DNA of 64,000 nucleotides from Chthoniobacterales bacterium (GTDB taxonomy: Bacteria > Verrucomicrobiota > Verrucomicrobiia > Chthoniobacterales > UBA10450), in NCBI GenBank assembly GCA_036490335.1, contig DASXEB010000016.1:70489-134488 (forward strand). Direction: 5' to 3'. The position numbers were made by a program, and so were the translations under genes. Positions within the stretch are counted from its first letter, which is position 1; every line of letters starts with the position of its first letter. Shown in pieces: positions 1,458 to 22,070 of this stretch. The notes below the pieces were generated by a model. That model did not search any database, was not told the DNA's origin, and worked only from the letters and a program-made list of their open reading frames with translations.

Positions 1458-2648
1458 CTAACAAAACGCCGGAATGCCGGTGATCTGTTGGCCGAGAATG
1501 AGAAGGTGCACGTCTTGCGTTCCTTCGTAAGTCTTCACGCTTTCGAGATTGCACATGTGCCGGAAGCACTCATGCGAATCCAGGATTCCGTTGCCCCCAA
1601 GTATGTCTCTCGTCGCACGCGCGACGTCGAGCGCCATCTCGACATTATTCATCTTCGCCATCGAGATATGATAATGTTTCAACTCACCGGCATCCTTCAA
1701 TTGAGCCAGACGAAAGACGAGTAACTGCGCCTTCGTGATCTCGGTGAGCATGCGCGCGAGTTTCGCCTGGATGAGTTGGAAACTCGCGAGCGGCCGGCTG
1801 AATTGCTCGCGCCTCAGAGAATATTCGCGCGCTTCTTCGTAGCACGCTTCCGCGGCGCCGATCGCGCCCCAGGCAATGCCGTAGCGCGCGTGATTCAGAC
1901 ATTCGAGCGCCGATCTCAGCCCTGTCGTCTCGGGAAGCAGCGCCACGTTGGGCAACTCGCAATCGTTGAATTCCAACTCAGCCGTCAAAGCCGCACGAAG
2001 AGATAACTTGCCCTCGATAACTCTCGCGACAAAACCTGGCGTTCCTTTTTCAACCAGAAATCCCCTGATCGCATTCGCGCCCTCGTCGCTAACTCCGGAA
2101 TCATTTTCGAGTCTCGCCCAGACAATCGCGACATCGGCCACGCTGCCATTGCCGATCCATTTTTTCCGACCACTTAGCCGATAGCCATCGGTCACTTTGC
2201 GCGCGCGGCATTGTAAGCCCGCGGGATTCGAACCAAAATCAGGCTCCGTCAGCGCGAAGCATCCGAGCTTCGCACCTTTCGCCATCGCCGGCAGCCAGCG
2301 CGTTTTTTGCTCGTCAGATCCGAAGAGATAAATCGCCATCATCGCGAGCGAGCCCTGCACCGAAGCAAAGGTCCGCAGCCCGCTGTCGCCTCGCTCCAGT
2401 TCCTGCATCATTAATCCGTTCGCGACGGCTCCGAGGCCGCGGCATCCATAACCCTTGATCCCAGGTCCGAAGACTCCGAGCTCGCCTAACTCTCCCACTA
2501 ACTCGAAAGGAAAGGTGCCGTCGCGATAATGTTGCGCGACGATCGGTCGAAAGCGCGCCGAGACCCATTCGCGGACGTGATTGCGAATTCCGATCTCTTC
2601 CTTCGTGAAACAGTCAGCCAGTCGGCAAAAGTCGGGGCTATCAGACAT
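1458..2648 (-). CDS. gcdH: Glutaryl-CoA dehydrogenase-type acyl-CoA dehydrogenase
   Basis: 396 aa. Family-typical segments: GCFALTEPDFGSNPAGL, RYGIAWGAIGAAEAC, and C-terminal NLESVKTYEGTQDVHLLILGQQITGIPAF. Confidence 0.7.
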   Translation of the reverse strand: MSDSPDFCRLADCFTKEEIGIRNHVREWVSARFRPIVAQHYRDGTFPFELVGELGELGVFGPGIKGYGCRGLGAVANGLMMQELERGDSGLRTFASVQGSLAMMAIYLFGSDEQKTRWLPAMAKGAKLGCFALTEPDFGSNPAGLQCRARKVTDGYRLSGRKKWIGNGSVADVAIVWARLENDSGVSDEGANAIRGFLVEKGTPGFVARVIEGKLSLRAALTAELEFNDCELPNVALLPETTGLRSALECLNHARYGIAWGAIGAAEACYEEAREYSLRREQFSRPLASFQLIQAKLARMLTEITKAQLLVFRLAQLKDAGELKHYHISMAKMNNVEMALDVARATRDILGGNGILDSHECFRHMCNLESVKTYEGTQDVHLLILGQQITGIPAFC

Positions 2649-6446: not shown

Positions 6447-7685
6447 TTAGGCGCGACCCCAGATCATGGCGACGCTTGTCGTGAGGCTTCCGCCCATGTT
6501 GAAGGTGAGAAATTTTTTTGCGCCTTCGATTTGGCGCGCGTTGGCCTGGTTCGTCAGTTGCTGGTGCGCTTCGTAAACCTGACGCACCCCGGTCGCGCCG
6601 ACCGGATGTCCGTCGCCAATCAAACCGCCGCCGACGTTGACCGGAATCTCCCAACCGATTTTCCCGCTCACATGTTCGCCGCGCACTTGCGGCAACGCGG
6701 TCGCGCCGCTTTTCGCCAGTTCCGCGCCTTTGCCCGGTTCGGCGAGGCCGAGAATTTCGTAGGCGACGATTTCGGTGATGGAAAAACAATCGTGCACTTC
6801 GACGCCATGCATGTCGCGCGGTTTCAGATTTGCCATCGCAAAAGCTTTCTCGGCCGATTTGCGAGCGGTCGAAAAAGTCGGCGCGTCCTTTTTTTCCAGC
6901 GCGAGATAATCGGTCGCGCTGCCAAAACCGAGCAGTTGCGGCAGGGTCGATTTATCACGGCCGATGCGATCGAGATATTTTCCCGAGACGAGCACAAGCG
7001 CGGCAGAGCCATCGGTGATCTGCGAACAATCGGAAACGCGCAGCGGCGGCGCGACGCTCGGATTTTTTTCCGACATCTGCGAGGCGTCGTCGTAGGTCAG
7101 GTTGGCGTCGCGCATTTGCGCGAGCGGATTGAGCCGTGCGTGCGCGTAGTTCTTGTAAGCGACGGCAGCAAGGTCGTTAGGCGTGGCGCCGTATTTCTCG
7201 ATGTAAATCTGCGCGATGCGCCCGAACAATTTCGGGAACATGAAGTCGCCGTATTCCGGTTTCTCGATGTGATAATCGGCCGCTGCGCCGAGCACGTCAG
7301 AGCCGTCGAGCGACGACATCGTTTTCTGCTGTTCCGCGCCCACGACGAGCACCGCGTCGTGAAAGCCGCCCATGATCCATTGCGCGCCGAGGAGCACGGA
7401 AAGCGCGCCGGATGCGCAAGCCGCCTCGGTGTGCATCGTGGGAATGCCGTGCAGCTTTTCGTCGATCTCCGGGATGAAGGCGCCGAGATGGAGCTGCTTC
7501 GTGAATTGCCCGGCGTTGAAATTACCGACCGCTGCGGCCTCGATCTCGCCGGCGTCGATCTTCGCGTCCGCGAGCGCCGCGCGGCCCGCTTCCTTGATCA
7601 GGTCGCGAATGGTTTTGCCTTCCTTGCGGAGGTTGCGCTTAAAGTCAGTTCGGCCACCGCCGAGGATGTAAACGGGTTCGTTCAT
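6447..7685 (-). CDS. Thiolase-family protein (SCP-x / non-specific lipid-transfer-type thiolase)
   Basis: 412 aa. Has a thiolase-like active-site region HTEAACASGALSV and a C-terminal GGGLIGDGHPVGATGVRQ. Confidence 0.75.
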   Translation of the reverse strand: MNEPVYILGGGRTDFKRNLRKEGKTIRDLIKEAGRAALADAKIDAGEIEAAAVGNFNAGQFTKQLHLGAFIPEIDEKLHGIPTMHTEAACASGALSVLLGAQWIMGGFHDAVLVVGAEQQKTMSSLDGSDVLGAAADYHIEKPEYGDFMFPKLFGRIAQIYIEKYGATPNDLAAVAYKNYAHARLNPLAQMRDANLTYDDASQMSEKNPSVAPPLRVSDCSQITDGSAALVLVSGKYLDRIGRDKSTLPQLLGFGSATDYLALEKKDAPTFSTARKSAEKAFAMANLKPRDMHGVEVHDCFSITEIVAYEILGLAEPGKGAELAKSGATALPQVRGEHVSGKIGWEIPVNVGGGLIGDGHPVGATGVRQVYEAHQQLTNQANARQIEGAKKFLTFNMGGSLTTSVAMIWGRA

Positions 7686-7882: not shown

Positions 7883-9373
7883 ATGATACAGCCACAACCC
7901 TACGTCCCGACCGCACGCGAGCAGAAGTTTCTCGAGGGCGTCGAAGAAGGCCGCTATGAGCGGGAAATTATTAGTGGGCTCGCCCCCTTCTTCAACGAGA
8001 AGGCTCCGGCGGACATGCTCAGCTTCTACTCCCCGGACGAGGTGACAAGGCTGAAGGCGCTCAAGGGCACCGATCGTGACGTTGAAGCCCGGATGCCCGT
8101 GAAGATCACGCGCCATTACTACGAGCTGGCCAGGACCAGCGCCGCGATTCAGCGCATCGTCAAGGCGGACCCCGGCGAGACGATGGATCTTGCGGGCGCG
8201 GAGGACCCCGGCAACCAGATGGACTACAGCCCCGTCGAGGGCCTGCTGCACAAGTACGAGATGGGACTCATGTACGTCATTTCGACCTGCTCGGCACATT
8301 GCCGCTTCTGTTACCGCGAAGAATTGATCGCCCGTAAGCAGATCAAGCGGCAGGACGGCACCATCGCGAAGAAAGGTCTCGCGTTGATCCCCGACATCAT
8401 CCCTTACATCAAGGCGCACAACGCGGCCGTCGCGGCCAACGGCGGTGTGCATCCCGAAAGCGGACGCGAGAAGCTGCGCGAGATCCTGATGTCGGGCGGC
8501 GACGCGATGGTGCTGAGCAATTCAAAGATCGCGGCCTGGCTCGCCGCGCTGGCCGAAGCCGGCGTCGAGTCGATCCGCATCGGCACCAAGGACATGGCGT
8601 TCTATCCCCAGCGCTTCGACCGCACCTTCCTCTCGATGCTCGATCGGTTCCACGAGACCTGGCCGCAGGTCGGCTTGCATATGATGCTGCACTTCGAGCA
8701 CCCGGACGAGTTCCTGGCTAAGGATGCGGAAGGAAACTACGTCGAGGATGCGCAGGGCTTTAAGCAGTGGGTCCCCGCGACGGGCGAAGGGATGCGGGGC
8801 CTGGCCTCGCGTGGTTGGCTCACCGTGCAGAACCAGGCGCCGATCATGAGGGGCATCAACGATGACCCGGACGCTCTCCGCATTCTGCAACGCGAGTTCA
8901 AGCGCGCCGGCGGCGAGAACCACTACTTCTTCTGCGGGCGCGACATCGTCGCCTACAAGGCATTCAACGTCCCGATCGAGACCGCGTGGAATATTCTCAA
9001 CGAGTCGCAAAAAGGGCTGTCGGGCGTCGAGGCGCACGCGCGCCTTTCCATCACCCATTACAAAGGGAAGACCGAAGTTTCAGCGGTCACCAACGAGGCG
9101 ATACCGGGACTCGCGGGCAGCGAGAATGGCGTCTTGATCTTCAAGATTCTTCGGAACGCCGGCAGCGCTCCGGACCGCGGCAAGGTCTGCATCGTCGGCC
9201 GCAACCCCGAGGCGCTCTGGTTCGACGACTACGAGGACCGCGTTCTGTTCGACGAGGCCGGCTTGTATCACTACGCGCGGGTTTCGAAATCCGGACAGGC
9301 GCCGGGTCACGCCACGGCTGCCGGACAGGCGCCGAGTCTCGGCGCTCTTCAAGCCGCTCTTGTCGCCGGGTGA
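7883..9373 (+). CDS. KamA-family radical SAM aminomutase (lysine-2,3-aminomutase-like), 496 aa
   Basis: CSAHCRFCYRE is a CxxxCxxC cluster in KamA-like context (MYVISTCSAHCRFCYREELI). GGAG lies 9 nt upstream of the ATG. It is longer than classical KamA, and substrate is not assignable by eye. Confidence 0.75.
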   Translation: MIQPQPYVPTAREQKFLEGVEEGRYEREIISGLAPFFNEKAPADMLSFYSPDEVTRLKALKGTDRDVEARMPVKITRHYYELARTSAAIQRIVKADPGETMDLAGAEDPGNQMDYSPVEGLLHKYEMGLMYVISTCSAHCRFCYREELIARKQIKRQDGTIAKKGLALIPDIIPYIKAHNAAVAANGGVHPESGREKLREILMSGGDAMVLSNSKIAAWLAALAEAGVESIRIGTKDMAFYPQRFDRTFLSMLDRFHETWPQVGLHMMLHFEHPDEFLAKDAEGNYVEDAQGFKQWVPATGEGMRGLASRGWLTVQNQAPIMRGINDDPDALRILQREFKRAGGENHYFFCGRDIVAYKAFNVPIETAWNILNESQKGLSGVEAHARLSITHYKGKTEVSAVTNEAIPGLAGSENGVLIFKILRNAGSAPDRGKVCIVGRNPEALWFDDYEDRVLFDEAGLYHYARVSKSGQAPGHATAAGQAPSLGALQAALVAG

Positions 9374-10083
9374 TGATCGACAAGCGGGTCGCGAGCGCGG
9401 CTGAGGCTGTCTCGGACATCTTCGACGGCGCAACCATCATGATCGGCGGTTTCGGCGAAGCGGGCAGTCCCGTCGAGCTCATCCACGCGCTGATCGACCA
9501 AGGCGCCACGAATCTGACGACGATCAGCAACAACACCGGCAGCGGCCAGGTCGGCCTCGCGGCGCTGCTCCAAGCGGGCCGCGTTTCCAAGGTCGTTTGT
9601 TCGTTTCCGCGCACCGCCAACTCGACCGTCTTCCCCGAGCTCTACCGAAGCGGGCGCACGAAATTGGAATTGGTTCCCCAAGGAACGCTCGCGGAGCGCA
9701 TCCGCGCTGGCGGAGCTGGAATCCCGGCGTTCTACACGCCGTCCGCGGTGGGAACGCCGCTGGCGGAAGGCAAGGAATGCCGGGAATTTGGCGACAGAAA
9801 GTATCTGCTTGAGCACGGCCTCCGCGCGGACTTCTCGCTCATCAAAGGGCGGGTCGCCGACACCCACGGCAACATCCTCTACAATAAAACGGCGCGAAAC
9901 TTCGCCCCGCTGATGGCGATGGCGGCCAAGGTCACGATCGTCCAAGTCGCCGAGATCGTCGAGCCCGGCCAGCTGGACCCCGAGTCGATCGTCACGCCCG
10001 GCATCTTCGTGGATCGCGTCGTCGCCATCGCCAACCCGGCCCACGAATCGGAACTCGTCGAAACGGGAGCGTCCTACCCATGA
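9373..10083 (+). CDS. 3-oxoacid CoA-transferase subunit A
   Basis: MIDKRVASAAEAVSDIFDGATIMIGGFGEAGSPVELIHALIDQG...ISNN is a typical ScoA/AtoD N-terminus. The ATG overlaps the KamA stop (TGATG). Confidence 0.85.
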   Translation: MIDKRVASAAEAVSDIFDGATIMIGGFGEAGSPVELIHALIDQGATNLTTISNNTGSGQVGLAALLQAGRVSKVVCSFPRTANSTVFPELYRSGRTKLELVPQGTLAERIRAGGAGIPAFYTPSAVGTPLAEGKECREFGDRKYLLEHGLRADFSLIKGRVADTHGNILYNKTARNFAPLMAMAAKVTIVQVAEIVEPGQLDPESIVTPGIFVDRVVAIANPAHESELVETGASYP

Positions 10084-10736
10084 CGAAGCCGCCGGTGATC
10101 GGGCGAACGCGCGAGGAGATGGCGCAGCGTCTGGCGCAGGACATTCCCGACGGCTCCTATGTGAATCTGGGCATTGGCATTCCGGAGCTGGTCACCAGGT
10201 TCGTGCCGGCGGGCCGCTCGCTGATCTATCACACAGAAAATGGCCTGCTCGGCATGGGCCCCGCGCCCAAGCCCGGCGAAGGCGATCCCGAGCTGCTCAA
10301 TGCGGGCAAACAGCGCGTGACGGCGTTGCCGGGCGCCGCGTATTTTCATCACGCGGACAGCTTCGCTATGATCCGCGGCGGCCACCTGGATCTTTGCGTG
10401 CTCGGCGCGCTCCAGGTCGCGCAGAATGGCGATCTGGCCAACTGGTCCACGGGCGAGCCCGACGCCATCCCCGCAGTCGGCGGCGCCATGGACCTGGTCG
10501 CGGGAGTAAAATCGATCTTCGTCATCACCCAGCATTGCACCAGGGAAGGCGAGGCGAAACTCGTGCAAAAGTGCACCTTTCCGCTGACGGGATTGGCCGT
10601 CGTGAACCGCATCTACACCGATCTCGCCGTGATCGAAGTCACGCCGGACGGATTTCGACTCGTCGAACTGAGCCCAGGCATCAATTTCAATTTCGTGCAG
10701 GAGCGCACCGGTGCGCCTCTGCTTCAAACTAATTAG
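10080..10736 (+). CDS. 3-oxoacid CoA-transferase subunit B
   Basis: Contains EEMAQRLAQDIPDGSYVNLGIGIP and HTENGLLGMGP. ATGA overlap with subunit A. Confidence 0.85.
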   Translation: MTKPPVIGRTREEMAQRLAQDIPDGSYVNLGIGIPELVTRFVPAGRSLIYHTENGLLGMGPAPKPGEGDPELLNAGKQRVTALPGAAYFHHADSFAMIRGGHLDLCVLGALQVAQNGDLANWSTGEPDAIPAVGGAMDLVAGVKSIFVITQHCTREGEAKLVQKCTFPLTGLAVVNRIYTDLAVIEVTPDGFRLVELSPGINFNFVQERTGAPLLQTN

Positions 10737-10744
10737 GAAGGAAG

Positions 10745-11145
10745 AATTAAGATTTAAGAAGGTGGCCACAGGAGATCCGGGGAAAGATTTGCGTAAACGA
10801 ACGATGAGCTTTGCCCTTCGTATTGTTCGGATGTTTTCGGCTCTGCCGAAAACGACTGGGGCACAGATACTTGGCAAGCAGGTGCTCCGTTCCGGGACGT
10901 CGGTGGGAGCAAATTATCGGGAGGCTTTCCGAGCGCGCAGTAAGCCGGAGTTCATCTCGAAGTGCGGCGACTGTTTGAAGGAAGTCGAAGAAACCGCTTA
11001 CTGGCTCGAGCTGCTTGTTGATGCAGAATTTGTCATTCCGGAAAAGCTGGCGCATCTGCAGCGGGAATGCGACGAGCTGACGGCGATCTTCGTTTCGATC
11101 ATCAAGAGTTCGAGGCGCAATACGACCACTTCTTAAATCTTAATT
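10745..11145. repeat. 17-bp perfect inverted repeat flanking the four-helix-bundle gene
   Basis: AATTAAGATTTAAGAAG at 10745-10761 is the exact reverse complement of CTTCTTAAATCTTAATT at 11129-11145. Both flanks are strikingly AT-rich compared with their surroundings. Confidence 0.8.
10804..11136 (+). CDS. Four-helix-bundle protein (23S rRNA intervening-sequence protein family)
   Basis: MSFALRIVRMFSALPKTTGAQILGKQVLRSGTSVGANYREAFRARSKPEFISKCGDCLKEVEETAYWLELL carries the family hallmarks: QLxRSxxSIGANxxEA, and KxxxxxKExxETxYWLxL. Confidence 0.8.
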   Translation: MSFALRIVRMFSALPKTTGAQILGKQVLRSGTSVGANYREAFRARSKPEFISKCGDCLKEVEETAYWLELLVDAEFVIPEKLAHLQRECDELTAIFVSIIKSSRRNTTTS

Positions 11146-11162
11146 TTTAATTCTTAATTCTG

Positions 11163-12479
11163 ATGCAAACCGACCTCTCACGCAGCGCCGCCCTCTACGA
11201 GCGGGCCCTCAAAGTCCTTCCCGGCGGCGTCAGCCGCAACGCGATCCTGCGGGCGAGTCACCCGACCTACGTCGAGTGCGGCAAAGGTTGCCGCGTGACC
11301 GACCTCGAGGGCGTCACGCGCATCGACTTCTCCAACAACATGGCGTCCCTGATCCACGGCCACGCCTGCCCCGAGATCATCCAGGCGGTGACGGAGCAGA
11401 TGAACCGCGGCACCGCGTTCATGATGGGCACCGAGATCGAGGTGCGCTATGCCGAGCACTTGTGCAGCCGCAACCGCTCGTTCGCGAAAATGCGTTTCAT
11501 GAACTCAGGCACCGAGGCGATCATGGTCGCGCTGAAGGCGGCCCGCGCATTTACCGGGCGGCCGAAGATCGCCAAGGCCGAGGGCGCCTACCACGGTGTC
11601 TACGACTACGCCGAGGTGAGCCAGGGTTCCACGCCGGCGACCTGGGGCGGCATCGACCATCCGGTTAGCGTTCCGCTGGTGCACGGGACCCCCGAGTCCG
11701 CGCTCAAGGACGTCGTTGTGTTTCCGTTCAACGACACCGAGCGCACGCTGGCGATCCTGGACGAGCACGCCAAAGATCTTGCGTGCGTCTTGATCGATCT
11801 GATGCCGCACCGCGTCGGCTTGTGTCCGGCAGATGTCGAGTTCGTCGCCGCGCTGCGCGAGTGGTCCGCGCGCCACGGGGTCCTGTTGGTGTTCGATGAA
11901 GTCATCACGTTCCGGGCCGAGCACGCCGGCTTGCAAGCGCGCTACGGCGTCACGCCCGACATGACCGCGCTGGGCAAGATCATCGGCGGTGGATTTCCCA
12001 TTGGCGCCGTCGCCGGCCGAGCCGAAGTCATGGATGTGCTCAACCCGCAGTCGCCCCGCTACGTGTTCCCGCACTCCGGCACATTCACGGCCAACCCGAT
12101 CAGCATGACCGCGGGCATGGCGGCGATGCTGAAGTTCGACCAACCCGCGGTGGCGCGCCTAAACGCGCTGACCGATCGGGCCAGGAACGGCATCGAAGGC
12201 GCGATCCGTGCGACGGGCGCGCCCGCGAGCGTCACCGGGGCGGGCTCGATGTTCCTGGTGCACATGAAGCAGACGCCGCCACGAAATTACCGCGATGCCT
12301 ACCCGACGCCCGACGAGTCGCGCCGACTCAAGGCGTTGCTCGAACATCTCCACAACGAAGGTTGCAGCATCATCAGCACGGGGACGTGCGTGTTCTCCAC
12401 GCCGATGACCGAAGCGGAGATCGACACGCTGGTAGGGGCGTTCAAGTCCGGCTTTGCCAAGCTGGCTTCGATTGGCTGA
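11163..12479 (+). CDS. Class-III (glutamate-1-semialdehyde-aminomutase-like) PLP aminotransferase
   Basis: LPGGVSRN, FMNSGTEAIMVALKAARAFTGR, LVFDEVITFR, ALGKIIGGGFPIGA (PLP lysine region). Confidence 0.8.
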   Translation: MQTDLSRSAALYERALKVLPGGVSRNAILRASHPTYVECGKGCRVTDLEGVTRIDFSNNMASLIHGHACPEIIQAVTEQMNRGTAFMMGTEIEVRYAEHLCSRNRSFAKMRFMNSGTEAIMVALKAARAFTGRPKIAKAEGAYHGVYDYAEVSQGSTPATWGGIDHPVSVPLVHGTPESALKDVVVFPFNDTERTLAILDEHAKDLACVLIDLMPHRVGLCPADVEFVAALREWSARHGVLLVFDEVITFRAEHAGLQARYGVTPDMTALGKIIGGGFPIGAVAGRAEVMDVLNPQSPRYVFPHSGTFTANPISMTAGMAAMLKFDQPAVARLNALTDRARNGIEGAIRATGAPASVTGAGSMFLVHMKQTPPRNYRDAYPTPDESRRLKALLEHLHNEGCSIISTGTCVFSTPMTEAEIDTLVGAFKSGFAKLASIG

Positions 12480-12560
12480 GCGAGCGAAAGGACGGATCGA
12501 TTCGGGCGGGTGGGATGCGTTGCAGATCATAAGAAAAAGTTTCGCCTACCGACGGGAGGC

Positions 12561-12585
12561 GCCCCCCCGGCAGGGGGCTTGTTTG
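12561..12585 (+). terminator. Possible intrinsic terminator after the aminotransferase gene
   Basis: GCCCCC (12561-12566), loop CCGGCA, GGGGGC (12573-12578), followed by TTGTTTG. Confidence 0.4.
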
Positions 12586-12623
12586 CGATCGACACGGACT
12601 GCACGACCGTGCAGGCTTTGCAA

Positions 12624-13730
12624 ATGCCTACACAGTTGACGATCATCGATTTGTTCTGCGGCGTTGGCGGATTCAGCTTAGGCGCAGCACAAGCGGGTTT
12701 CCGGCCGTTGGTCGGTATCGATATCGATCCTGATCTAATTTCCGGATATGGTTTAAACTTCCCTTCGGCGCGTGCAGTGGAGGCCGACATCTCGGAATTA
12801 GACGCTCCCGCATGGGAAGAGATTCTGCGGGGCAATCAGCCTCTGGGAATCATCGGCGGACCGCCGTGTCAGGGCTTCAGCCGGATCGGGAAACGCGAGA
12901 AGAATGATGCGCGCAACCGGCTAGTCGGATCGTTTATCAAACAGGTCTGTTCGTTGCGTCCAGCGTTCTTTGTCATGGAAAATGTCGAAGGGCTTCTGGA
13001 TTCAGACTTCGAGGAGATGCTTGAGCTCGCTCTCCGTCGAGCGCGAGATCACTATGAGCTAATAGGACCGATTCAATTAAACGCATGCGACGCTGGAGTC
13101 CCCACCGATCGCCGTCGTGTAATCGTGGTAGGATATGATTCGGCAAGAGTTGGAAGGTTGGTCCCAACCGATTTTGCGATCAAGAGTCGCAGTAAAGTGA
13201 CCGTGCGCGATGCCATCGAAGATCTTCCCGCTCCGAATGAAGATGATGATGGCGACTTTGCTTGGTCCCGGTATTCGTCAGGAGTGAGTCTAGGAACTTA
13301 TGCACGGACGATGAGGGGGTCACTGCCGCGCGGCGTGGGTTGGGAGGCGTCCCTGAAGCGAAGAGAGTCGGAGGTATCCGGATTGCAAAAGACGATTCAC
13401 ACGTGGGAGGTTGTAGAGCGATTCGACCGGGTCGCCGCTGGGAAAACCGATTCGATTAGCCGGTATCCTCGCCTTTCGTGGGATGGCCGCTGCCCAACGT
13501 TGCGCGCTGGAACCGGATCGGAACGCGGATCGTTCCAAGCAGCTCGTCCAATCCATCCGGAAGAGCCTCGGGTTATCACGGTGCGAGAAGCCGCCAGACT
13601 CCAGGGATTCCCGGACGCCTTCGTGTTCCATCCGACGAAATGGCACAGCTTCAGAATGATCGGCAACAGCGTGTCGCCTCCGGTCGCGCGGAAAGTGATG
13701 GCAGTTATTCGAGGGAAGATTAAGAAGTAG
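12624..13730 (+). CDS. dcm: DNA (cytosine-5)-methyltransferase
   Basis: Motif I DLFCGVGGFSLG, motif IV GGPPCQGFS (catalytic Cys), motif VI FFVMENVEGL, RLQGFPDAF, and motif X GNSVSPPVA. Confidence 0.9.
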   Translation: MPTQLTIIDLFCGVGGFSLGAAQAGFRPLVGIDIDPDLISGYGLNFPSARAVEADISELDAPAWEEILRGNQPLGIIGGPPCQGFSRIGKREKNDARNRLVGSFIKQVCSLRPAFFVMENVEGLLDSDFEEMLELALRRARDHYELIGPIQLNACDAGVPTDRRRVIVVGYDSARVGRLVPTDFAIKSRSKVTVRDAIEDLPAPNEDDDGDFAWSRYSSGVSLGTYARTMRGSLPRGVGWEASLKRRESEVSGLQKTIHTWEVVERFDRVAAGKTDSISRYPRLSWDGRCPTLRAGTGSERGSFQAARPIHPEEPRVITVREAARLQGFPDAFVFHPTKWHSFRMIGNSVSPPVARKVMAVIRGKIKK

Positions 13731-13740
13731 CGGAGACCAG

Positions 13741-15420
13741 ATGGCCAAGGGAGTCGAACGCAGGCAGGCGGACACCAGTCCGACCAAGGAAGTGGTCGTC
13801 CAAAGTCTCACGAAGGACGCGACGACACAGGCGTGTCTTTTCGATTTGGTTGACAACGCGATTGACGGGGCTCGTGAAGTGATCGAAGCGGGCGGCGGCA
13901 AAACCAAGACGAAGCCAATCGACCTGCCTTCATCCTACAAAGGTTACAAAGTCGATCTGCGGGTAAGCGGTTCCGAGGTTCGGGTCGAAGACAATGCTTC
14001 TGGTATATCGGCTGATGATTTGGAGAAGTCCGTCCTACGATTCGGTCAGCGGGCCGGACGTCCGCACGGCATTGGCTTTTATGGCGTGGGGCTGAACCGC
14101 GCTCTCTTCAAACTCGGTCGAACGGTCAAAATCGATACCGATGACGGCAAGTCGCATTCTCTAATTGGGTTCGATGTCGATGATTACCTGAAGGAGGCGA
14201 CTACGTGGGAGCGTCCTTTCGACGTGACCGCTTCAACCGGCAAGCGAGGAACGACGATCACGTTGACCAATCCGGCACCCGAAATCTCACGCGAACTTGC
14301 AGGTTCGGACGAGATCCTTCGGCGCGATCTGGGCCGACGCTATCATCGTTTTTTGCAGAAGGGACTGAAGATTCTTTTCCAAGGAAAACCTGTCGAGCCT
14401 CTCTATATCCCGCTCCGTGGAAACTCACCTTTCCCGAGGCTCCACAAATCATACCGCAGTGGAGACAACGTTTGGATTCATATCGAAGCAGGCGAGCATC
14501 GCGATCACCTGTTCCCTGCCGAGATGGCCGAGGGAAGCGCGAACCCGCCGGAACTGACTCGGGATTTCGGCTGGTCCGTGCTGTGCAACGACCGTGAGAT
14601 TGTGGAGGCCGACCGGACGGATAAAACCGGCTGGGAGCACACGTGGCACCCTGAGTACAATGGCTTCGTCGGCCGGGTTCATTTTGTAAGTTCCGCCCCT
14701 GATCTGCTGCCTTGGAACACTTCGAAAACCGATGTGGACCGAAATAACGCTGCCTACCAACGCGCTCTGGAAGACATGCAGGCATTTGCGGCGAAATGGC
14801 GCCAATACACTCGCGCCGCGAAAACTGCGAAACGGAAGGGACTGCTGCTGCCCGTTCCCGGACCGCGCAAAGGAGTTGAGAGTGCGCCGAGCGCCAAGTC
14901 AAATTCACGGCGCCCAAAGGCGAAGATGCGACAGCATAGTCGGTGGCTCTTGCCCGCCGACATCGACGAGGGGAAATGCAGTGGAAAGTTGCTCGAACTT
15001 GTCGGGGAAGGTAAGTCTATCGACGCCTTCGAGAACCGATACACTGGGTTGGCGCTGATGCGCATATTGTTCGAGGTGGCCAGTGTTCATTTCTTAAAAC
15101 GAGCCAAGCTTCTCGAACCCTGTAGAGCGTGGTGCATCGCAAAAGAGGAGGCGGCTCGGGCGAAAGCCTATAGCGCTGACCACAAGAAAAGATACGTGCC
15201 CGCCCTCTCAATTCTCTTGGATTACTTCACGGCACACTGGGAACCGACCTTCGGGCCCGCAGCAGGAGCCTATCTCGAACCGAGCTTCAACAAATTCAAG
15301 CAATTCAAGTCGGATATGGACAGCGCTGTGCATCATCCATTCAACGAGATCAACGCTATTCGCGCGATTGAGATGCGCGACTCGTGCATTCCGATCTTGC
15401 GGCACTTGCTCGAAACCTAA
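13741..15420 (+). CDS. GHKL (Bergerat-fold, MORC/MutL-like) ATPase with an unassigned ~200-aa C-terminal domain
   Basis: N-box FDLVDNAIDGA (aa 34-44), G1 box VEDNASGIS (aa 82-90), G2 box GIGFYGVGLNRALFKLG (aa 110-126). No nuclease motif seen. Sits between dcm and vsr with 10-nt and 5-nt gaps. Confidence 0.7.
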   Translation: MAKGVERRQADTSPTKEVVVQSLTKDATTQACLFDLVDNAIDGAREVIEAGGGKTKTKPIDLPSSYKGYKVDLRVSGSEVRVEDNASGISADDLEKSVLRFGQRAGRPHGIGFYGVGLNRALFKLGRTVKIDTDDGKSHSLIGFDVDDYLKEATTWERPFDVTASTGKRGTTITLTNPAPEISRELAGSDEILRRDLGRRYHRFLQKGLKILFQGKPVEPLYIPLRGNSPFPRLHKSYRSGDNVWIHIEAGEHRDHLFPAEMAEGSANPPELTRDFGWSVLCNDREIVEADRTDKTGWEHTWHPEYNGFVGRVHFVSSAPDLLPWNTSKTDVDRNNAAYQRALEDMQAFAAKWRQYTRAAKTAKRKGLLLPVPGPRKGVESAPSAKSNSRRPKAKMRQHSRWLLPADIDEGKCSGKLLELVGEGKSIDAFENRYTGLALMRILFEVASVHFLKRAKLLEPCRAWCIAKEEAARAKAYSADHKKRYVPALSILLDYFTAHWEPTFGPAAGAYLEPSFNKFKQFKSDMDSAVHHPFNEINAIRAIEMRDSCIPILRHLLET

Positions 15421-15425
15421 AGAGC

Positions 15426-15848
15426 ATGACGGATCACGTGTCCGTATTGCATCGGAGCGCGATCATGCGCTCTGTTGGATCAAAAAATACCGGTCCTGAA
15501 ATTCTTGTCCGCCGCGCTGCTCATTCTCTTGGGTTGCGATTCCGTTTGCATCGAAAATCGCTGCCGGGCACGCCCGACATAGTATTTCCTAAGTCCAAGA
15601 CGGCAATCTTTGTGCACGGCTGCTTCTGGCACCGCCATTCGAAATGTCGAAAGGCGACCACGCCACGATCAAGAGTCGAGTTTTGGAACGCTAAATTCGA
15701 CCGAAACGTGGCCCGAGATGCGGAGTCTCAGTCCTTGCTGCGCAAGCTTGGCTGGAAGGTAATTGTCGTTTGGCAGTGCGAGGTCCCGACAAAGGAGGCT
15801 GCGGAGAAGATTTTGAAGCGCGTCTTCTTCAGTCGCAGAGGGTCATGA
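15426..15848 (+). CDS. vsr: Very-short-patch repair endonuclease
   Basis: RSAIMRSVGSKNTGPEILVRRAAHSLGLRFRLH...LPGTPDIVFPKSKTAIFVHGCFWHRH...FWNAKFDRNVARD is canonical Vsr. Confidence 0.9.
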   Translation: MTDHVSVLHRSAIMRSVGSKNTGPEILVRRAAHSLGLRFRLHRKSLPGTPDIVFPKSKTAIFVHGCFWHRHSKCRKATTPRSRVEFWNAKFDRNVARDAESQSLLRKLGWKVIVVWQCEVPTKEAAEKILKRVFFSRRGS

Positions 15849-15919: not shown

Positions 15920-16033
15920 TCGAACGATCTGACAGTCAGGCTCACTTCCAAAACTCACTCCCGTTCGAAGACCGTCGCCAAGCCTTGTCCTACCCCGACG
16001 CAGAGCGACGCCATGCCGCGCGAGGCGTCGGTG
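15920..16033 (-). pseudogene. Orphan copy of the 3' end of the thiolase gene plus 35 bp of its downstream flank (att-like repeat, copy A)
   Basis: About 94% identical (6 substitutions and 1 indel by eye) to 17778-17890. Encodes ...ASLCVGVGQGLATVFERE* like the true thiolase C-terminus. ORF 15955..16242 in the track is this fragment fused to unrelated sequence. Confidence 0.75.
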
Positions 16034-17739: not shown

Positions 17740-17811
17740 ACTTGCGCGAAAGGGTGCGTTGGAGAGGCGCTGGGCGCTCGAACGATCTGACAGTCAGGCC
17801 CACTTCCAAAC

Positions 17812-19017
<1,206 letters not shown>

Positions 19018-20518: not shown

Positions 20519-22066
20519 TTAGGCCGTCGAGCTGCCTTCGTCGACGCTGCCAAACTGAATCCCCTGCGCAAGCGGCAGCTCGGTGGAAAAATTGATCGTG
20601 TTCGTCTGCCGCCGCATGTAGCTCTTCCACGAATCGCTCCCGCTTTCGCGGCCGCCGCCGGTGTTTTTTTCGCCGCCGAATGCGCCGCCAATTTCCGCGC
20701 CGCTCGTCCCGGCGTTCACATTTGCGATCCCGCAATCGCTCCCGACTGCGCTGACAAATTTCTCCGCCTCGCGCATGTCGTTGGTGAAAATCGACGAGCT
20801 CAGACCTTGCGAAACGTTGTTATGCATCGCGAGCGCTTCGTCGAAATCGCGATAGGTCATGAGATAAAGCAACGGACCGAAAGTCTCGTGCTGCACAATT
20901 TTGAAATCCGCGCGCGCGCGCGCAAGGCACGGTCTCATATAACAACCGCCGGAAAACTTTTCGCCGTCAAGCTTCTCGCCGCCGTAAAGAATTTCGCCAC
21001 CTTCTTCTTTCAGCCTAACGATGGAATTTTCGACGTTATCCACCGCGCACGGATCGATCAGCGGACCCATCAACGTTTCGCGCTCGAGCGGATTTCCGAT
21101 CCGCACATTTCTGTAGAGACGGCCTAACGAATCCTCGATTTCCTCCGCGACCGACTCGTGCATGATCACGCGTCGCGTCGAGGTGCAGCGCTGTCCCGCC
21201 GTCCCAACTGCGCCGAAAAAAATCGCACTCGTCGCCATTTTCAAATCGGCGGTCGGCGTGACGAGGAGCGCGTTGTTACCACCGAGCTCCATGATCGTGC
21301 GACCGAGCCGGCCATGCACCGTTTTCGCGACATTGAAACCCATGCGCGTCGATCCAGTCGCGGAAACAAGCGGAACGCGCGAGTCCGCGGCAAGCCGTTG
21401 GCCTAACGATGGTCCGTCGCCGATGATCAAACCGAAAATTGCCGGATCCGCTCCGGTCTCGCGACAGACGCGCGCGGCGATTTTCGTCACCGCGATCGCG
21501 GTCAGCGGCGTTTTTTCGGAAGGCTTCCAAACCGTCGCGTCACCGCAGACGGCCGCGAGCGCCGCGTTCCACGACCAGACCGCGACCGGAAAATTAAAGG
21601 CAGAAATGACGCCGACGATGCCTAACGGATGCCACTGTTCCATCAGCCGATGATTCGGGCGCTCCGACTGAATTGTTAGGCCGTAAAGCATCCGCGATTG
21701 GCCGACGGCGAAGTCGCAAATGTCGATCATCTCCTGCACTTCGCCTTCGCCCTCGGCGATGATTTTGCCGGCTTCGAGCGAGACGAGCATGCCGAGTTCG
21801 CGTTTGTTTTCGCGCAATGCGTTGCCGAGTTGCCTAACGGTTTCGCCGCGCACCGGCGCGGGCACGGTGCGCCATTTTAGAAACGCTTCCTGCGCCCTAA
21901 CGATGACTTTTTCGTAGTCGTCAGGCGACGCGGTGCGGACTTTGCCTAACGACTTACCGTCAATCGGCGAAAATTTCTCGATCGTCGCGTCGCCGCCCGC
22001 CCACTCGCCGGAAAAGGCGCCATCGTTCGTCTCGGCGAGGCCGAGTTTCTGCAAAAGGTTGGTCAT
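20519..22066 (-). CDS. amaB: ALDH7-type aldehyde dehydrogenase (alpha-aminoadipic semialdehyde / piperideine-6-carboxylate dehydrogenase)
   Basis: PAPVRGETVRQLGNALRENKRELGMLVSLEAGKIIAEGEGEVQEMIDICDFAVGQSRMLYG closely parallels the ALDH7A1/antiquitin segment. 515 aa. Confidence 0.8.
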   Translation of the reverse strand: MTNLLQKLGLAETNDGAFSGEWAGGDATIEKFSPIDGKSLGKVRTASPDDYEKVIVRAQEAFLKWRTVPAPVRGETVRQLGNALRENKRELGMLVSLEAGKIIAEGEGEVQEMIDICDFAVGQSRMLYGLTIQSERPNHRLMEQWHPLGIVGVISAFNFPVAVWSWNAALAAVCGDATVWKPSEKTPLTAIAVTKIAARVCRETGADPAIFGLIIGDGPSLGQRLAADSRVPLVSATGSTRMGFNVAKTVHGRLGRTIMELGGNNALLVTPTADLKMATSAIFFGAVGTAGQRCTSTRRVIMHESVAEEIEDSLGRLYRNVRIGNPLERETLMGPLIDPCAVDNVENSIVRLKEEGGEILYGGEKLDGEKFSGGCYMRPCLARARADFKIVQHETFGPLLYLMTYRDFDEALAMHNNVSQGLSSSIFTNDMREAEKFVSAVGSDCGIANVNAGTSGAEIGGAFGGEKNTGGGRESGSDSWKSYMRRQTNTINFSTELPLAQGIQFGSVDEGSSTA

Positions 22067-22070
22067 GCGC

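Follow-up and report, generated by a model that had tools for sequence, protein, structure and literature searches.

A laterally mobile five-gene module in soil Verrucomicrobia and Planctomycetes, proposed to drain L-2-aminoadipate into central metabolism

The β-ketoadipate steps are well-known degradation chemistry. Lysine fermentation has a classical form, which uses KamDE, Kdd, and Kce, and a variant form that employs an aminomutase, a CoA-transferase, a thiolase, and a HemL-like β-transaminase, Kat, which acts on a CoA ester (PMC3149608). Here we describe a five-gene module, found in a 64,000-nucleotide stretch of a Chthoniobacterales genome (the window), whose proposed CoA-transferase–thiolase logic is distinct from the classical route. 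It consists of a KamA-like aminomutase, CoA-transferase subunits A and B, a HemL-like class III aminotransferase, and a convergent PcaF-like thiolase. A preliminary description of the segment at 7883 to 12479 had recognized the first four genes; their positions and shared + strand are confirmed, and NCBIfam and Pfam matches bear out their families. The unit extends beyond that segment. The thiolases noted on the two sides are confirmed but differ in kind: the module includes the one at 17812 to 19017 and excludes the SCP2-type protein at 6447 to 7685.

From these families we infer the following scheme. Adjacent lysine 6-transaminase (LAT) and piperideine-6-carboxylate (P6C) dehydrogenase would supply L-2-aminoadipate from lysine, and the radical-SAM/PLP enzyme would turn this into 3-aminoadipate by moving the amino group from C2 to C3. 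The HemL-like transaminase would convert 3-aminoadipate to 3-oxoadipate, a PcaIJ-type transferase would form 3-oxoadipyl-CoA with succinyl-CoA as the CoA donor, and the PcaF-like thiolase would release acetyl-CoA and succinyl-CoA, regenerating the donor. The transamination and CoA transfer may be swapped, with the transaminase acting on 3-aminoadipyl-CoA. The net predicted conversion, of 2-aminoadipate, an amino acceptor, and CoA to succinate and acetyl-CoA, would have no O2-requiring step. We judge this sequence, from lysine to succinyl-CoA and acetyl-CoA, to be somewhat probable, and we lean to a similar degree toward the view that the module, a self-contained and laterally mobile unit, would drain L-2-aminoadipate into central metabolism. 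The data establish the enzyme families, the linkage of the genes, their lateral spread, and purifying selection, whereas substrate, direction, and the order of transamination and CoA transfer are inferred. By simple chemistry, 2-aminoadipate is the α-amino acid that gives 3-oxoadipate via a 2,3-shift and β-transamination, and the PcaF-type thiolase and PcaIJ family together point to a C6 dicarboxylate. The literature that we searched yielded no paper on a 2-aminoadipate 2,3-aminomutase or on a lysine/2-aminoadipate route of this kind; counting against the scheme, 3-aminoadipate is not established as a bacterial metabolite.

The first gene (7883 to 9373, + strand) encodes a divergent, 496-amino-acid KamA-family radical-SAM/PLP 2,3-aminomutase, assigned from NCBIfam matches, motifs, and an AF2 model, which we propose to be an L-2-aminoadipate 2,3-aminomutase. 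Its best NCBIfam match is the KamA family model TIGR00238 (80 bits versus a cut-off of 199), and the KamA, arginine, glutamate, and lysine 2,3-aminomutase and EpmB models all score 67 to 80 bits, far under their cut-offs; none of the characterized clades represented by NCBIfam models was matched. An EpmB-type or other noncatabolic identity had been raised earlier as a possible objection; EpmB was rejected at 66.6 bits versus a cut-off of 369. The AF2 model (pLDDT 91) has 2A5H as its top Foldseek match (E = 6.5e-17). The active site keeps the radical-SAM cysteines of the CxxxCxxC motif (C136/C140/C143), the SAM motif, the PLP lysine, and the α-carboxylate arginine R145, and C136/C140/C143, G205-G206-D207, and K396 do not vary among 39 family members, one of them a canonical lysine 2,3-aminomutase. 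An inspection of substrate-binding residues, as suggested in the preliminary description, showed that the two aspartates that hold the ε-ammonium of lysine in 2A5H, Asp293 and Asp330, are both replaced, by Arg353 and Ser/Thr. The same charge reversal occurs in glutamate 2,3-aminomutase, and 2-aminoadipate has the chain length of lysine with a terminal carboxylate. Arg353 is not clade-specific: it is present in all ~30 distant KamA-like representatives, including stand-alone homologues adjoining tRNA-synthetase or sucCD genes, and the site thus speaks against lysine without singling out 2-aminoadipate.

The 3-oxoacid CoA-transferase is encoded by subunit A (9373 to 10083, + strand; PcaI/ScoA family, TIGR02429, 337 bits versus 128.5) and subunit B (10080 to 10736, + strand; PcaJ/ScoB family, TIGR02428, 294 bits versus 243.6). 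Bacillus subtilis ScoA (3CDK) is the best PDB match of subunit A. The start/stop overlaps reported earlier are present between KamA and subunit A (TGATG) and between the subunits (ATGA), but a 426-nt gap before the aminotransferase had been overlooked. It is the site of a nonpathway cassette of the four-helix-bundle (23S rRNA IVS protein) family (10737 to 11162, + strand; PF05635, TIGR02436), flanked by 31-nt inverted repeats (10731 to 10761 and 11129 to 11159). The cassette is found in only some related loci, and relatives' contigs from two runs, which lack it, join 10725 to 11165 via a 38-nt spacer.

The aminotransferase (11163 to 12479, + strand; PF00202) is proposed to act as a 3-aminoadipate (or 3-aminoadipyl-CoA) transaminase; by analogy with Kat, it might take a CoA ester instead of the free acid. 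HemL models are its top matches, at 332 bits versus a cut-off of 527; a genuine HemL identity was rejected, the true HemL, on contig C22, scoring 598 bits. Its closest solved relative is an S. thermophilus transaminase, 6K8H (393 bits), which acts on β- and γ-amino acids, and further matches include the β-Phe and β-transaminases 4AO9 and 2YKU.

The fifth gene (17812 to 19017, − strand) encodes a PcaF-like degradative thiolase, which we propose to be a 3-oxoadipyl-CoA thiolase. Its top three NCBIfam matches are all 3-oxoadipyl-CoA thiolase models; the generic acetyl-CoA C-acyltransferase subfamily model scores 474 bits, named acetoacetyl-CoA thiolase models reach at most 430 bits, and its best named PDB match is the Pseudomonas putida β-ketoadipyl-CoA thiolase, 6PCA. 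Against this proposal, module thiolases of the main type fall just under the PcaF (TIGR02430) cut-off of 597 (535 to 575 bits; 569 in the window). Between the module arms lies a nonpathway Dcm methylase/GHKL ATPase/Vsr insertion (12510 to 15848, + strand; Pfam and NCBIfam matches), which most related loci lack, their aminotransferase and thiolase genes lying closer together or directly convergent. A duplicate of the thiolase 3′ end (15920 to 16033, a copy of 17778 to 17890) forms direct repeats, 94 to 97% identical, that bracket ~1.9 kb of cargo.

The module lies within genes of lysine catabolism. LAT (22071 to 23459, − strand; TIGR03251, 573 bits versus 521), which 72 of 81 genomes from the window's family carry, is accompanied by L-piperideine-6-carboxylate (aminoadipate-semialdehyde) dehydrogenase (20519 to 22066, − strand; NF050084, 786 bits versus 730), the product of which is L-2-aminoadipate. 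The substrate had been considered unreadable by eye, and the sequence alone is indeed silent, but these adjacent genes make L-2-aminoadipate the most likely candidate. The recipient's operon also encodes P0125 (19069 to 20475, − strand), an unannotated 468-amino-acid protein that had no Pfam, NCBIfam, or PDB sequence match and has >6,400 homologues, all labeled “hypothetical.” It is possibly HglS/DUF1338-like: in a low-confidence model (pLDDT 56), the N-terminal domain best matches DUF1338 structures, with a Z score of 10.5 to rice hydroxyglutarate synthase (6W1K).

In the window, as in three other genomes (G782, G300, and G475), the LAT/P6C dehydrogenase operon contains the module between P0125 and the SCP2-type thiolase-domain gene (6447 to 7685, − strand; Pfam Thiolase_C_1 and Thiolase_N). 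The latter two are adjacent in module-free relatives (G433 and G674; loci L030 and L041), and the SCP2-type gene had no counterpart in Phycisphaerales loci; it is part of an older operon of the recipient genome. Elsewhere the module is <~17 kb from the operon with other genes between (G620 and G540), a few kilobases downstream of the P6C dehydrogenase gene on the same strand (G746, locus L016), in the order LAT-P6CDH-x-P0125-KamA (L102), or in single-strand ACAD-LAT-P6CDH-KamA-CoAT arrays (L057, L079, and L082, G683). The Chthoniobacterales operon insertions come from related genomes and are not independent observations; they may reflect a single insertion, then spread by recombination. Among Chthoniobacterales, dS is 0.07 to 0.28 for the module versus ~0.7 to 1.3 for neighboring genes (0.66 to 1.26 for LAT and P6C dehydrogenase in the same genomes), which marks the module as recently acquired by lateral transfer. 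Its thiolase, 94 to 97% identical (dS 0.07 to 0.12), behaves as the other module genes do. Module dN/dS values of 0.11 to 0.32 reveal purifying selection and hence functional genes. Contigs 90 to 99% identical occur in soil metatranscriptome assemblies of at least three studies; together they cover all four + strand genes and span the KamA/CoAT_A and CoAT_B/AT junctions, although such contigs alone do not prove transcription.

The five genes stay linked in ~80 loci from two phyla (soil Verrucomicrobia and Planctomycetes), and the four genes whose co-conservation had been put forward for checking are collinear (KamA-CoAT_A-CoAT_B-AT) in every sufficiently long locus, far from a chance neighborhood. 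In ~38 Phycisphaerales loci the genes are tightly packed, overlapping by 4 nt wherever gene calls exist; the convergent thiolase partners the aminotransferase in 26 of the ~30 loci that reach far enough. Of the ~38, 33 have an RpiR-type regulator upstream, and the flanks show no other recurrent gene family; RpiR/SIS regulators are unusual in amino acid catabolism, which counts against our reading. Five Phycisphaerales genomes carry a rearranged variant in which KamA (65 to 68% identical) is divergent from RpiR-CoAT_A-CoAT_B-thiolase-AT′, where AT′ is a different HemL-like transaminase, only 33 to 35% identical. All three variant thiolases tested exceed the 3-oxoadipyl-CoA thiolase equivalog cut-off (640 to 656 bits versus 597). 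This independently arranged variant retains the five functions and, with the two-phylum synteny, supports the logic of aminomutase, β-transaminase, CoA-transferase, and thiolysis put forward in the preliminary description. In a sample of 201 Phycisphaerales genomes, an ALDH7-type P6C dehydrogenase occurs in 41/41 whose KamA orthologue is of the main type (≥70% identity) versus 90/160 others, a statistic that ignores phylogeny. Counting against our reading, no P6C dehydrogenase was found at E ≤ 1e-90 in three variant-module genomes (G875, G962, and G994), and no LAT above cut-off in five complete Phycisphaerales genomes carrying the module.

An alternative hypothesis, which we consider improbable, is that a lysine 2,3-aminomutase makes β-lysine, which passes via 6-amino-3-oxohexanoate and its CoA ester to acetyl-CoA and 4-aminobutyryl-CoA and on through GABA to succinate; a related possibility is a truncated variant lysine fermentation (KamA, AtoAD, Kat, thiolase). 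The family membership, fold, and motifs of the KamA-like protein, the lysine-catabolic neighbors, and the shared enzyme types of the variant fermentation are as expected, but the lysine-binding aspartates are gone, one of them replaced by arginine, and a canonical lysine 2,3-aminomutase-like gene with both intact is already present on contig C14 (493 bits). Moreover, a 3-oxoadipyl-CoA-type thiolase implies an acyl product bearing a carboxylate, not an ammonium, and free 6-amino-3-oxohexanoate would be expected to cyclize readily. No BKACE/Kce was detected above cut-off in this genome (92% complete) or in five carrier genomes; KamD gave no match in a genome search run without a positive control.

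The aminomutase might instead be a glutamate 2,3-aminomutase, and environmental β-glutamate use the module's role, with transamination of β-glutamate to 3-oxoglutarate and then either activation and cleavage to malonyl-CoA and acetyl-CoA or decarboxylation to acetoacetate, followed by a ScoAB-type transferase and thiolase. The basic residue in place of the aspartates, as in glutamate 2,3-aminomutase, the ScoA relative, and a dicarboxylate-type thiolase that might take 3-oxoglutaryl-CoA all suit this idea; we nevertheless regard it as doubtful, given that the glutamate model TIGR04368 scores 73 bits versus 650, no better than other subfamily models, that the thiolases match the 3-oxoadipyl-CoA model, the variant ones above its cut-off, and that the flanks have no recurrent gene for malonyl-CoA handling. 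It also leaves the repeated fusion with LAT/P6C dehydrogenase and the 41/41 co-occurrence without a reason. The same chemistry could serve another substrate (leucine/β-leucine, arginine, or 2-aminopimelate) or run in reverse, from succinyl-CoA and acetyl-CoA through 3-oxoadipate and 3-aminoadipate to 2-aminoadipate, every step being reversible in principle. Homologues 46 to 67% identical in unrelated, housekeeping-like contexts and the three variant carriers lacking P6C dehydrogenase accord with this. It is unlikely, however, in view of the C6-dicarboxylate enzyme types, the insertion into a catabolic lysine operon (co-oriented in some genomes) near acyl-CoA dehydrogenase and FadB-like genes, and thiolase condensation, which is thermodynamically uphill. 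These alternatives fit the evidence less well than 2-aminoadipate catabolism does.

If the 2-aminoadipate reading is true, the module would constitute a new route of lysine breakdown, one that feeds 2-aminoadipate into the β-ketoadipate steps.

The four genes named in the preliminary description lie on the forward strand where that description had placed them. They encode a KamA-like protein of 496 amino acids (7883-9373), whose sole model matches are weak ones to the KamA family, subunits A (9373-10083; TIGR02429, 337 bits versus a cutoff of 128.5) and B (10080-10736; TIGR02428, 294 bits versus 243.6) of a CoA-transferase, and a class III aminotransferase of the HemL-like subgroup (11163-12479; HemL model TIGR00713, 332 bits versus 527). 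TGATG and ATGA overlaps tie both CoA-transferase genes to the KamA gene and to each other, and upstream of the aminotransferase there is a 426-nt gap that was absent from the earlier account. Beyond a block encoding a Dcm methylase, a GHKL/MORC-like ATPase, and Vsr (12510-15848), a PcaF-like thiolase is encoded on the reverse strand (17812-19017; TIGR02430, 569 bits versus 597). The same strand encodes an unannotated 468-aa protein without a model match, P0125 (19069-20475), L-piperideine-6-carboxylate (P6C) dehydrogenase (P6CDH; 20519-22066; NF050084, 786 versus 730), L-lysine 6-transaminase (LAT; 22071-23459; TIGR03251, 573 versus 521), and a long acyl-CoA dehydrogenase (ACAD; 23521-25533; no model above its cutoff, the best scoring 244 versus 600). 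LAT and P6CDH, both above their equivalog cutoffs, adjoin the thiolase (20519-23459).

Orthologues of the KamA-like protein were detected in 21 of the 71 sampled genomes of the window's own Chthoniobacterales family, and sampled genomes from other families of the order had none. They were also present, at 67 to 82% identity, in 47 of 201 sampled Phycisphaerales (Planctomycetota). The module is encoded as well in Phycisphaerales bacterium ac7, a strain whose genome is deposited as complete (CP159477). Wherever a locus is long enough to judge, the genes for the KamA-like protein, both CoA-transferase subunits, and the aminotransferase remain collinear, which bears out the expectation that they would be conserved together. 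In Phycisphaerales the genes are tightly packed, and both loci with gene calls show 4-nt overlaps. A divergent RpiR-type regulator (HTH_6 plus SIS) lies upstream in 33 of about 38 Phycisphaerales loci; immediately downstream, 26 of the roughly 30 loci that extend so far have a convergent thiolase (73 to 80% identical to that at 17812-19017). No gene family besides these six recurred in the flanks of the Phycisphaerales loci, and the module is therefore self-contained; the real unit is five genes and a regulator. Five other Phycisphaerales genomes carry a rearranged variant in which the KamA gene (product 65 to 68% identical) is divergent from the order RpiR, CoA-transferase A, CoA-transferase B, thiolase, aminotransferase, and in which the aminotransferase is another HemL-like enzyme, just 33 to 35% identical. 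Because the same five functions recur here in a new arrangement and with a far more divergent transaminase, the variant is the strongest evidence that the five work jointly.

All scores of the KamA-like protein against KamA-family models were far under the cutoffs: NCBIfam comparisons gave 80.1 bits for TIGR00238 (cutoff, 199.2) and 80, 73, 68, and 67 bits for the arginine, glutamate, lysine, and EpmB models, respectively, and no Pfam model matched at an E value of <0.001. The cutoff for lysine 2,3-aminomutase was missed (TIGR03820, 67.7 bits versus 525), and the protein did not group with the EpmB/YjeK-type proteins (TIGR03821, 66.6 bits versus 369.3), a possibility raised earlier. It is a divergent branch outside the reach of the TIGR00238 model. 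In an alignment of 39 sequences, which ran from its orthologues through to a canonical lysine 2,3-aminomutase encoded on contig C14 of the same genome, the invariant residues included C136, C140, and C143 (CxxxCxxC, [4Fe-4S]), G205-G206-D207 (GGD, SAM), and K396, which matches the GGGGK lysine of the canonical enzyme (the PLP lysine, K337 of 2A5H). The AF2 model (pLDDT 91, pTM 0.88) had 2A5H as its best Foldseek match (E value, 6.5e-17; TM 0.67 on the target), and the next radical-SAM enzymes followed at 5e-5. Motifs and model together point to a genuine but divergent aminomutase.

The active site of 2A5H, the KamA of Clostridium subterminale, offers a guide to the substrate; we take Arg134 to hold the lysine alpha-carboxylate and Asp293 and Asp330 to hold the epsilon-ammonium group. 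The equivalent of Arg134 is retained in the KamA-like protein (C143-Y-R145), Arg353 aligns with Asp293, and a Ser or Thr (S389 or T391) aligns with Asp330. The module protein is like KamA in its radical-SAM/PLP fold, CxxxCxxC and GGD motifs, PLP lysine, and alpha-carboxylate arginine; unlike KamA, it is about 80 residues longer, has both lysine-binding aspartates replaced, and has other genomic partners. As judged from the aligned residues, its pocket does not appear to be a lysine site, and the Asp-to-Arg charge reversal would suit an acidic side chain. Glutamate 2,3-aminomutase presumably has the same reversal at its lysine-binding aspartates. In that enzyme (Eam of Clostridioides difficile, TIGR04368), likewise of the KamA family, a basic and a polar residue replace the aspartates, so that an acidic side chain is accepted; the key position is Arg in the module protein and, we assume, Lys in Eam. 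The module protein nevertheless differs clearly from Eam (73 bits versus a cutoff of 650), and to our knowledge Eam has no link to CoA-transferase, thiolase, or transaminase genes. We rejected a reading of the substrate from active-site residues: the Asp-to-Arg replacement is real, but the Arg is common to all of the approximately 30 distant KamA-like proteins aligned, and hence it is not specific to the module's clade and has no discriminating value inside it.

Some KamA-like homologues, 43 to 68% identical, stand alone (L018:9989-11401, L022:2816-4363, and L023:8001-9404, coordinates within each locus). They occur in a CysRS/ThrRS interval (genome G180), beside SerRS (L022), and downstream of sucCD (L023); in these three contexts we found no module partner genes and no functional clue. 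This stand-alone branch may have a housekeeping role. The canonical lysine 2,3-aminomutase-like gene on contig C14 (L020:1420-2628) encodes 402 aa, scores 493 bits against TIGR03820, and has both lysine-binding aspartates intact; its product might make beta-lysine, either for modifying EF-P or as an osmolyte.

The module aminotransferase is not the genuine HemL that the preliminary description had allowed for: at 332 bits it lies under the HemL cutoff of 527, and a separate, true HemL (598 bits) is encoded on contig C22. Its nearest solved relative is 6K8H from Sphaerobacter thermophilus (393 bits), a transaminase used on beta- and gamma-amino acids, and further matches were the beta-phenylalanine and beta-transaminases 4AO9 (Variovorax) and 2YKU (Mesorhizobium). 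All of these share the class III HemL-like subgroup with the module enzyme. The three were characterized on aromatic or aliphatic beta-amino acids, and we know of no report of 3-aminoadipate activity, or of such a module, for any of them. Kat is a HemL-like enzyme that transaminates a beta-aminoacyl-CoA (PMC3149608). Given this activity on a CoA ester, the module aminotransferase could use either a free acid or a CoA ester.

Both transferase subunits passed the PcaI/ScoA and PcaJ/ScoB family cutoffs, models that are blind to specificity for 3-oxoadipate versus acetoacetate. The top NCBIfam matches of the window thiolase were all 3-oxoadipyl-CoA thiolase models, and its 569 bits against TIGR02430 compare with an equivalog cutoff of 597; main-type Phycisphaerales thiolases scored 535 to 575, and those of the variant modules scored 640 to 656 (three of three passing). 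Its best named solved relative is the beta-ketoadipyl-CoA thiolase of P. putida (448 bits), versus at most 379 bits for acetoacetyl-CoA thiolases. By these family assignments, the lower half of the module would be the classic end of the beta-ketoadipate pathway, with which it shares a PcaIJ-family transferase, a PcaF-like thiolase, and a closed succinyl-CoA cycle. Unlike in that pathway, the source of 3-oxoadipate would be an amino acid acted on by an aminomutase and a beta-transaminase, in place of an aromatic ring that is cleaved; no ring-cleavage (pca/cat) gene was present among the recurrent neighbors of the Phycisphaerales module.

The setting of the module in Chthoniobacterales is a lysine operon. 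Two family members that lack the module (G433 and G674) have the order ACAD-LAT-P6CDH-P0125, followed directly by an SCP2-type thiolase. In the window and in three other genomes (G782, G300, and G475), the module occupies precisely this P0125-thiolase junction, which marks the thiolase at 6447-7685 as an insertion flank and not a module gene. Of the thiolases that the preliminary description had noted on both sides, the one at 17812-19017 thus belongs to the module, and the other is the flank that adjoins P0125 in G433 and G674. In G620 and G540, no more than about 17 kb separates the module from the LAT operon, and further genes intervene. Rearranged loci in other genomes retain the association: the module follows on one strand in the order ACAD-LAT-P6CDH-KamA-CoA-transferase (loci L057, L079, and L082 [G683]), has P6CDH a few kilobases upstream on the same strand (G746), or shows the order LAT-P6CDH-x-P0125-KamA (L102). 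In the Phycisphaerales sample, every one of the 41 carriers of a main-type orthologue (≥70% identity) also has P6CDH (ALDH7-type, E value of ≤1e-170), versus 90 of 160 others, counts that are uncorrected for relatedness.

Among Chthoniobacterales, the module genes are 88 to 97% identical, with dS of 0.07 to 0.28; for LAT and P6CDH in the same genome pairs, the values are 70 to 85% and 0.66 to 1.26. The dN/dS of the module genes, 0.11 to 0.32, indicates purifying selection. We conclude that the module spread laterally into a lysine operon in Chthoniobacterales, where its position may reflect a single insertion event. A 396-aa acyl-CoA dehydrogenase (1458-2648, reverse strand) is convergent to LAT-P6CDH in many genomes of the family (L028, L029, L031, L032, and L046). 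It weakly resembles glutaryl-CoA dehydrogenase (188 bits versus 470) and may be part of the conventional glutaryl-CoA branch of lysine catabolism.

The window operon also carries insertions. Between CoA-transferase B and the aminotransferase, a gene for a four-helix bundle of the 23S-IVS protein family (10737-11162) has 31-nt inverted repeats on both sides, and the site holds a 38-nt spacer instead in contigs of relatives; it behaves like a small mobile cassette within the operon. The 3' end of the thiolase gene is duplicated (15920-16033 and 17778-17890, 94 to 97% identical), each copy comprising the last approximately 25 codons and about 35 bp of downstream flank. The two copies enclose about 1.9 kb of cargo, an orphan 268-aa ORF included, and were left behind by an element that inserted at the 3' end of the gene. 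The Dcm/GHKL/Vsr block is missing from most relatives. In many Chthoniobacterales, insertions of 1 to 5 kb part the two CoA-transferase genes (e.g., L053:12195-16797 and L050:12201-15821), with cargo that is defense- or toxin-antitoxin-like: a CAP12/Pycsar-type TIR protein, a Ser/Thr kinase with TPR repeats, and a RelB antitoxin. Junctions within the operon resemble a hotspot of insertion. Numerous MAG contigs end just past the KamA gene, probably because such insertions riddle the Chthoniobacterales operon.

P0125 matched nothing in Pfam, NCBIfam, or PDB sequences and only unnamed clusters in the ESM Atlas. It belongs to a highly conserved family of more than 6,400 homologues, all named "hypothetical" and 64 to 90% identical among those listed or searched. 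These come from Chthoniobacterales/Verrucomicrobiota, and two Phycisphaerales genomes gave HMM matches as well; the position directly after P6CDH is conserved. It was present in 25 of 81 family genomes and missing from four module carriers; the family tallies take in three unpublished genomes (G564, G792, and G797), on which no individual claim rests. The N-terminal domain of a low-confidence AF2 model best matched DUF1338 structures, including rice hydroxyglutarate synthase 6W1K (3IUZ, Z 11.7; 3LHO, Z 11.1; 6W1K, Z 10.5; YdcJ, Z 7.7; generic VOC folds, 6 to 7). We speculate that P0125 may be an unrecognized enzyme of lysine catabolism; on this structural resemblance, it could be a remote relative of HglS that drains lysine-derived 2-oxoadipate in an O2-dependent reaction. 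The idea that the module replaced P0125 is not a clean either/or, because high-identity P0125 alleles often accompany the module, though four carriers lack P0125. A 461-aa ORF downstream of P6CDH in strain ac7 proved unrelated to P0125.

On chemical grounds, the alpha-amino acid that a 2,3-amino shift and beta-transamination would turn into 3-oxoadipate is 2-aminoadipate. We therefore propose that the adjoining LAT and P6CDH would supply 2-aminoadipate from lysine, that the KamA-like enzyme would shift its amino group to give 3-aminoadipate, and that the HemL-like transaminase would then form 3-oxoadipate, a CoA-ester substrate being also conceivable. The PcaIJ-type transferase would take CoA from succinyl-CoA, which PcaF-type thiolysis would regenerate; such a closed cycle is in keeping with a module that is transferred whole. 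We give about an even chance to this reading, in which the KamA-like protein is an L-2-aminoadipate 2,3-aminomutase, an undescribed radical-SAM activity; 3-aminoadipate is a genuine bacterial metabolite; and the two enzymes, aminomutase and 3-aminoadipate transaminase, form an O2-independent lysine branch into the beta-ketoadipate end steps, within a module that is common in soils and has passed between Planctomycetota and Verrucomicrobiota. Several points count against it: P6CDH is absent from three of the variant-module carriers, five complete Phycisphaerales carriers have no LAT above the cutoff, main-type thiolases fall just under the PcaF cutoff, and the operon position in Chthoniobacterales may be a single insertion. 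The P6CDH neighborhood in strain ac7 gave no hint of a P6C source there.

A route through beta-lysine would use the same enzyme types, as in the variant lysine fermentation of "Candidatus Cloacamonas acidaminovorans," which has KamA, a two-subunit CoA-transferase, the beta-transaminase Kat (HemL-like, class III), and a thiolase (PMC3149608). That fermentation, unlike the module, needs KamDE, Kdd, and Kce and runs via 3-aminobutyryl-CoA and acetoacetyl-CoA, and the module thiolase appears to be of the 3-oxoadipyl-CoA, dicarboxylate type. The active site contradicts a beta-lysine route, the genome has its separate canonical lysine 2,3-aminomutase, and Kce was found neither in this genome (92% complete) nor above the cutoff in five carrier genomes, with a positive control genome; we consider the route quite improbable. 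A profile search for KamD (PF09043) had no match, and the control genomes likewise gave none. Beta-glutamate would agree with the charge of the active site, but it leaves the lysine-operon link unexplained and fits neither the P6CDH association nor the PcaF match, so we allow it only a slim chance. Use of other amino acids, or operation of the module in the biosynthetic direction, strikes us as unlikely.

The 2-aminoadipate reading would add another kind of outlet to the one provided by HglS/DUF1338 in Pseudomonas putida and plants, which requires O2 and converts 2-oxoadipate to 2-hydroxyglutarate (PMC7286885). Both would be outlets for lysine-derived 2-aminoadipate; unlike the HglS route, the proposed path is O2 independent and would end in succinyl-CoA and acetyl-CoA. 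In the searchable literature we found no mention of an aminomutase acting on aminoadipate, of 3-aminoadipate as an intermediate in bacteria, or of any connection from 2-aminoadipate to 3-oxoadipate. All of the enzyme families are known; what would be new is how they are combined, the specificity proposed for the aminomutase, and the route itself. Bacterial lysine routes past 2-aminoadipate are reportedly still emerging, HglS (2019 to 2020) being an example.

Many studies have metagenomes with near-identical DNA, sampled from soil, rhizosphere, biocrust, and sediment. Assembled soil metatranscriptomes (four runs, from no fewer than three studies) include contigs 90 to 99% identical that cover all four genes. 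One spans the junction between KamA and CoA-transferase A (9017-9458), and others link CoA-transferase B to the aminotransferase with the IVS cassette absent; these contigs from RNA libraries document presence and bridging and do not by themselves prove transcription, strand, or level. The module is common: roughly one in four of the Phycisphaerales sampled has it, as does roughly one in three members of one Chthoniobacterales family. Characterized radical-SAM 2,3-aminomutases are a small set (lysine, glutamate, and arginine), and the proposed reading, if true, would add a substrate specificity to it, together with a new beta-transaminase; both enzymes would be relevant to pathway engineering that starts from lysine and aims at adipate or beta-amino acids. 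In the bacteria that carry the module, lysine degradation would feed the end steps of the beta-ketoadipate pathway with no need for O2, bypassing the 2-oxoadipate and glutaryl-CoA steps.
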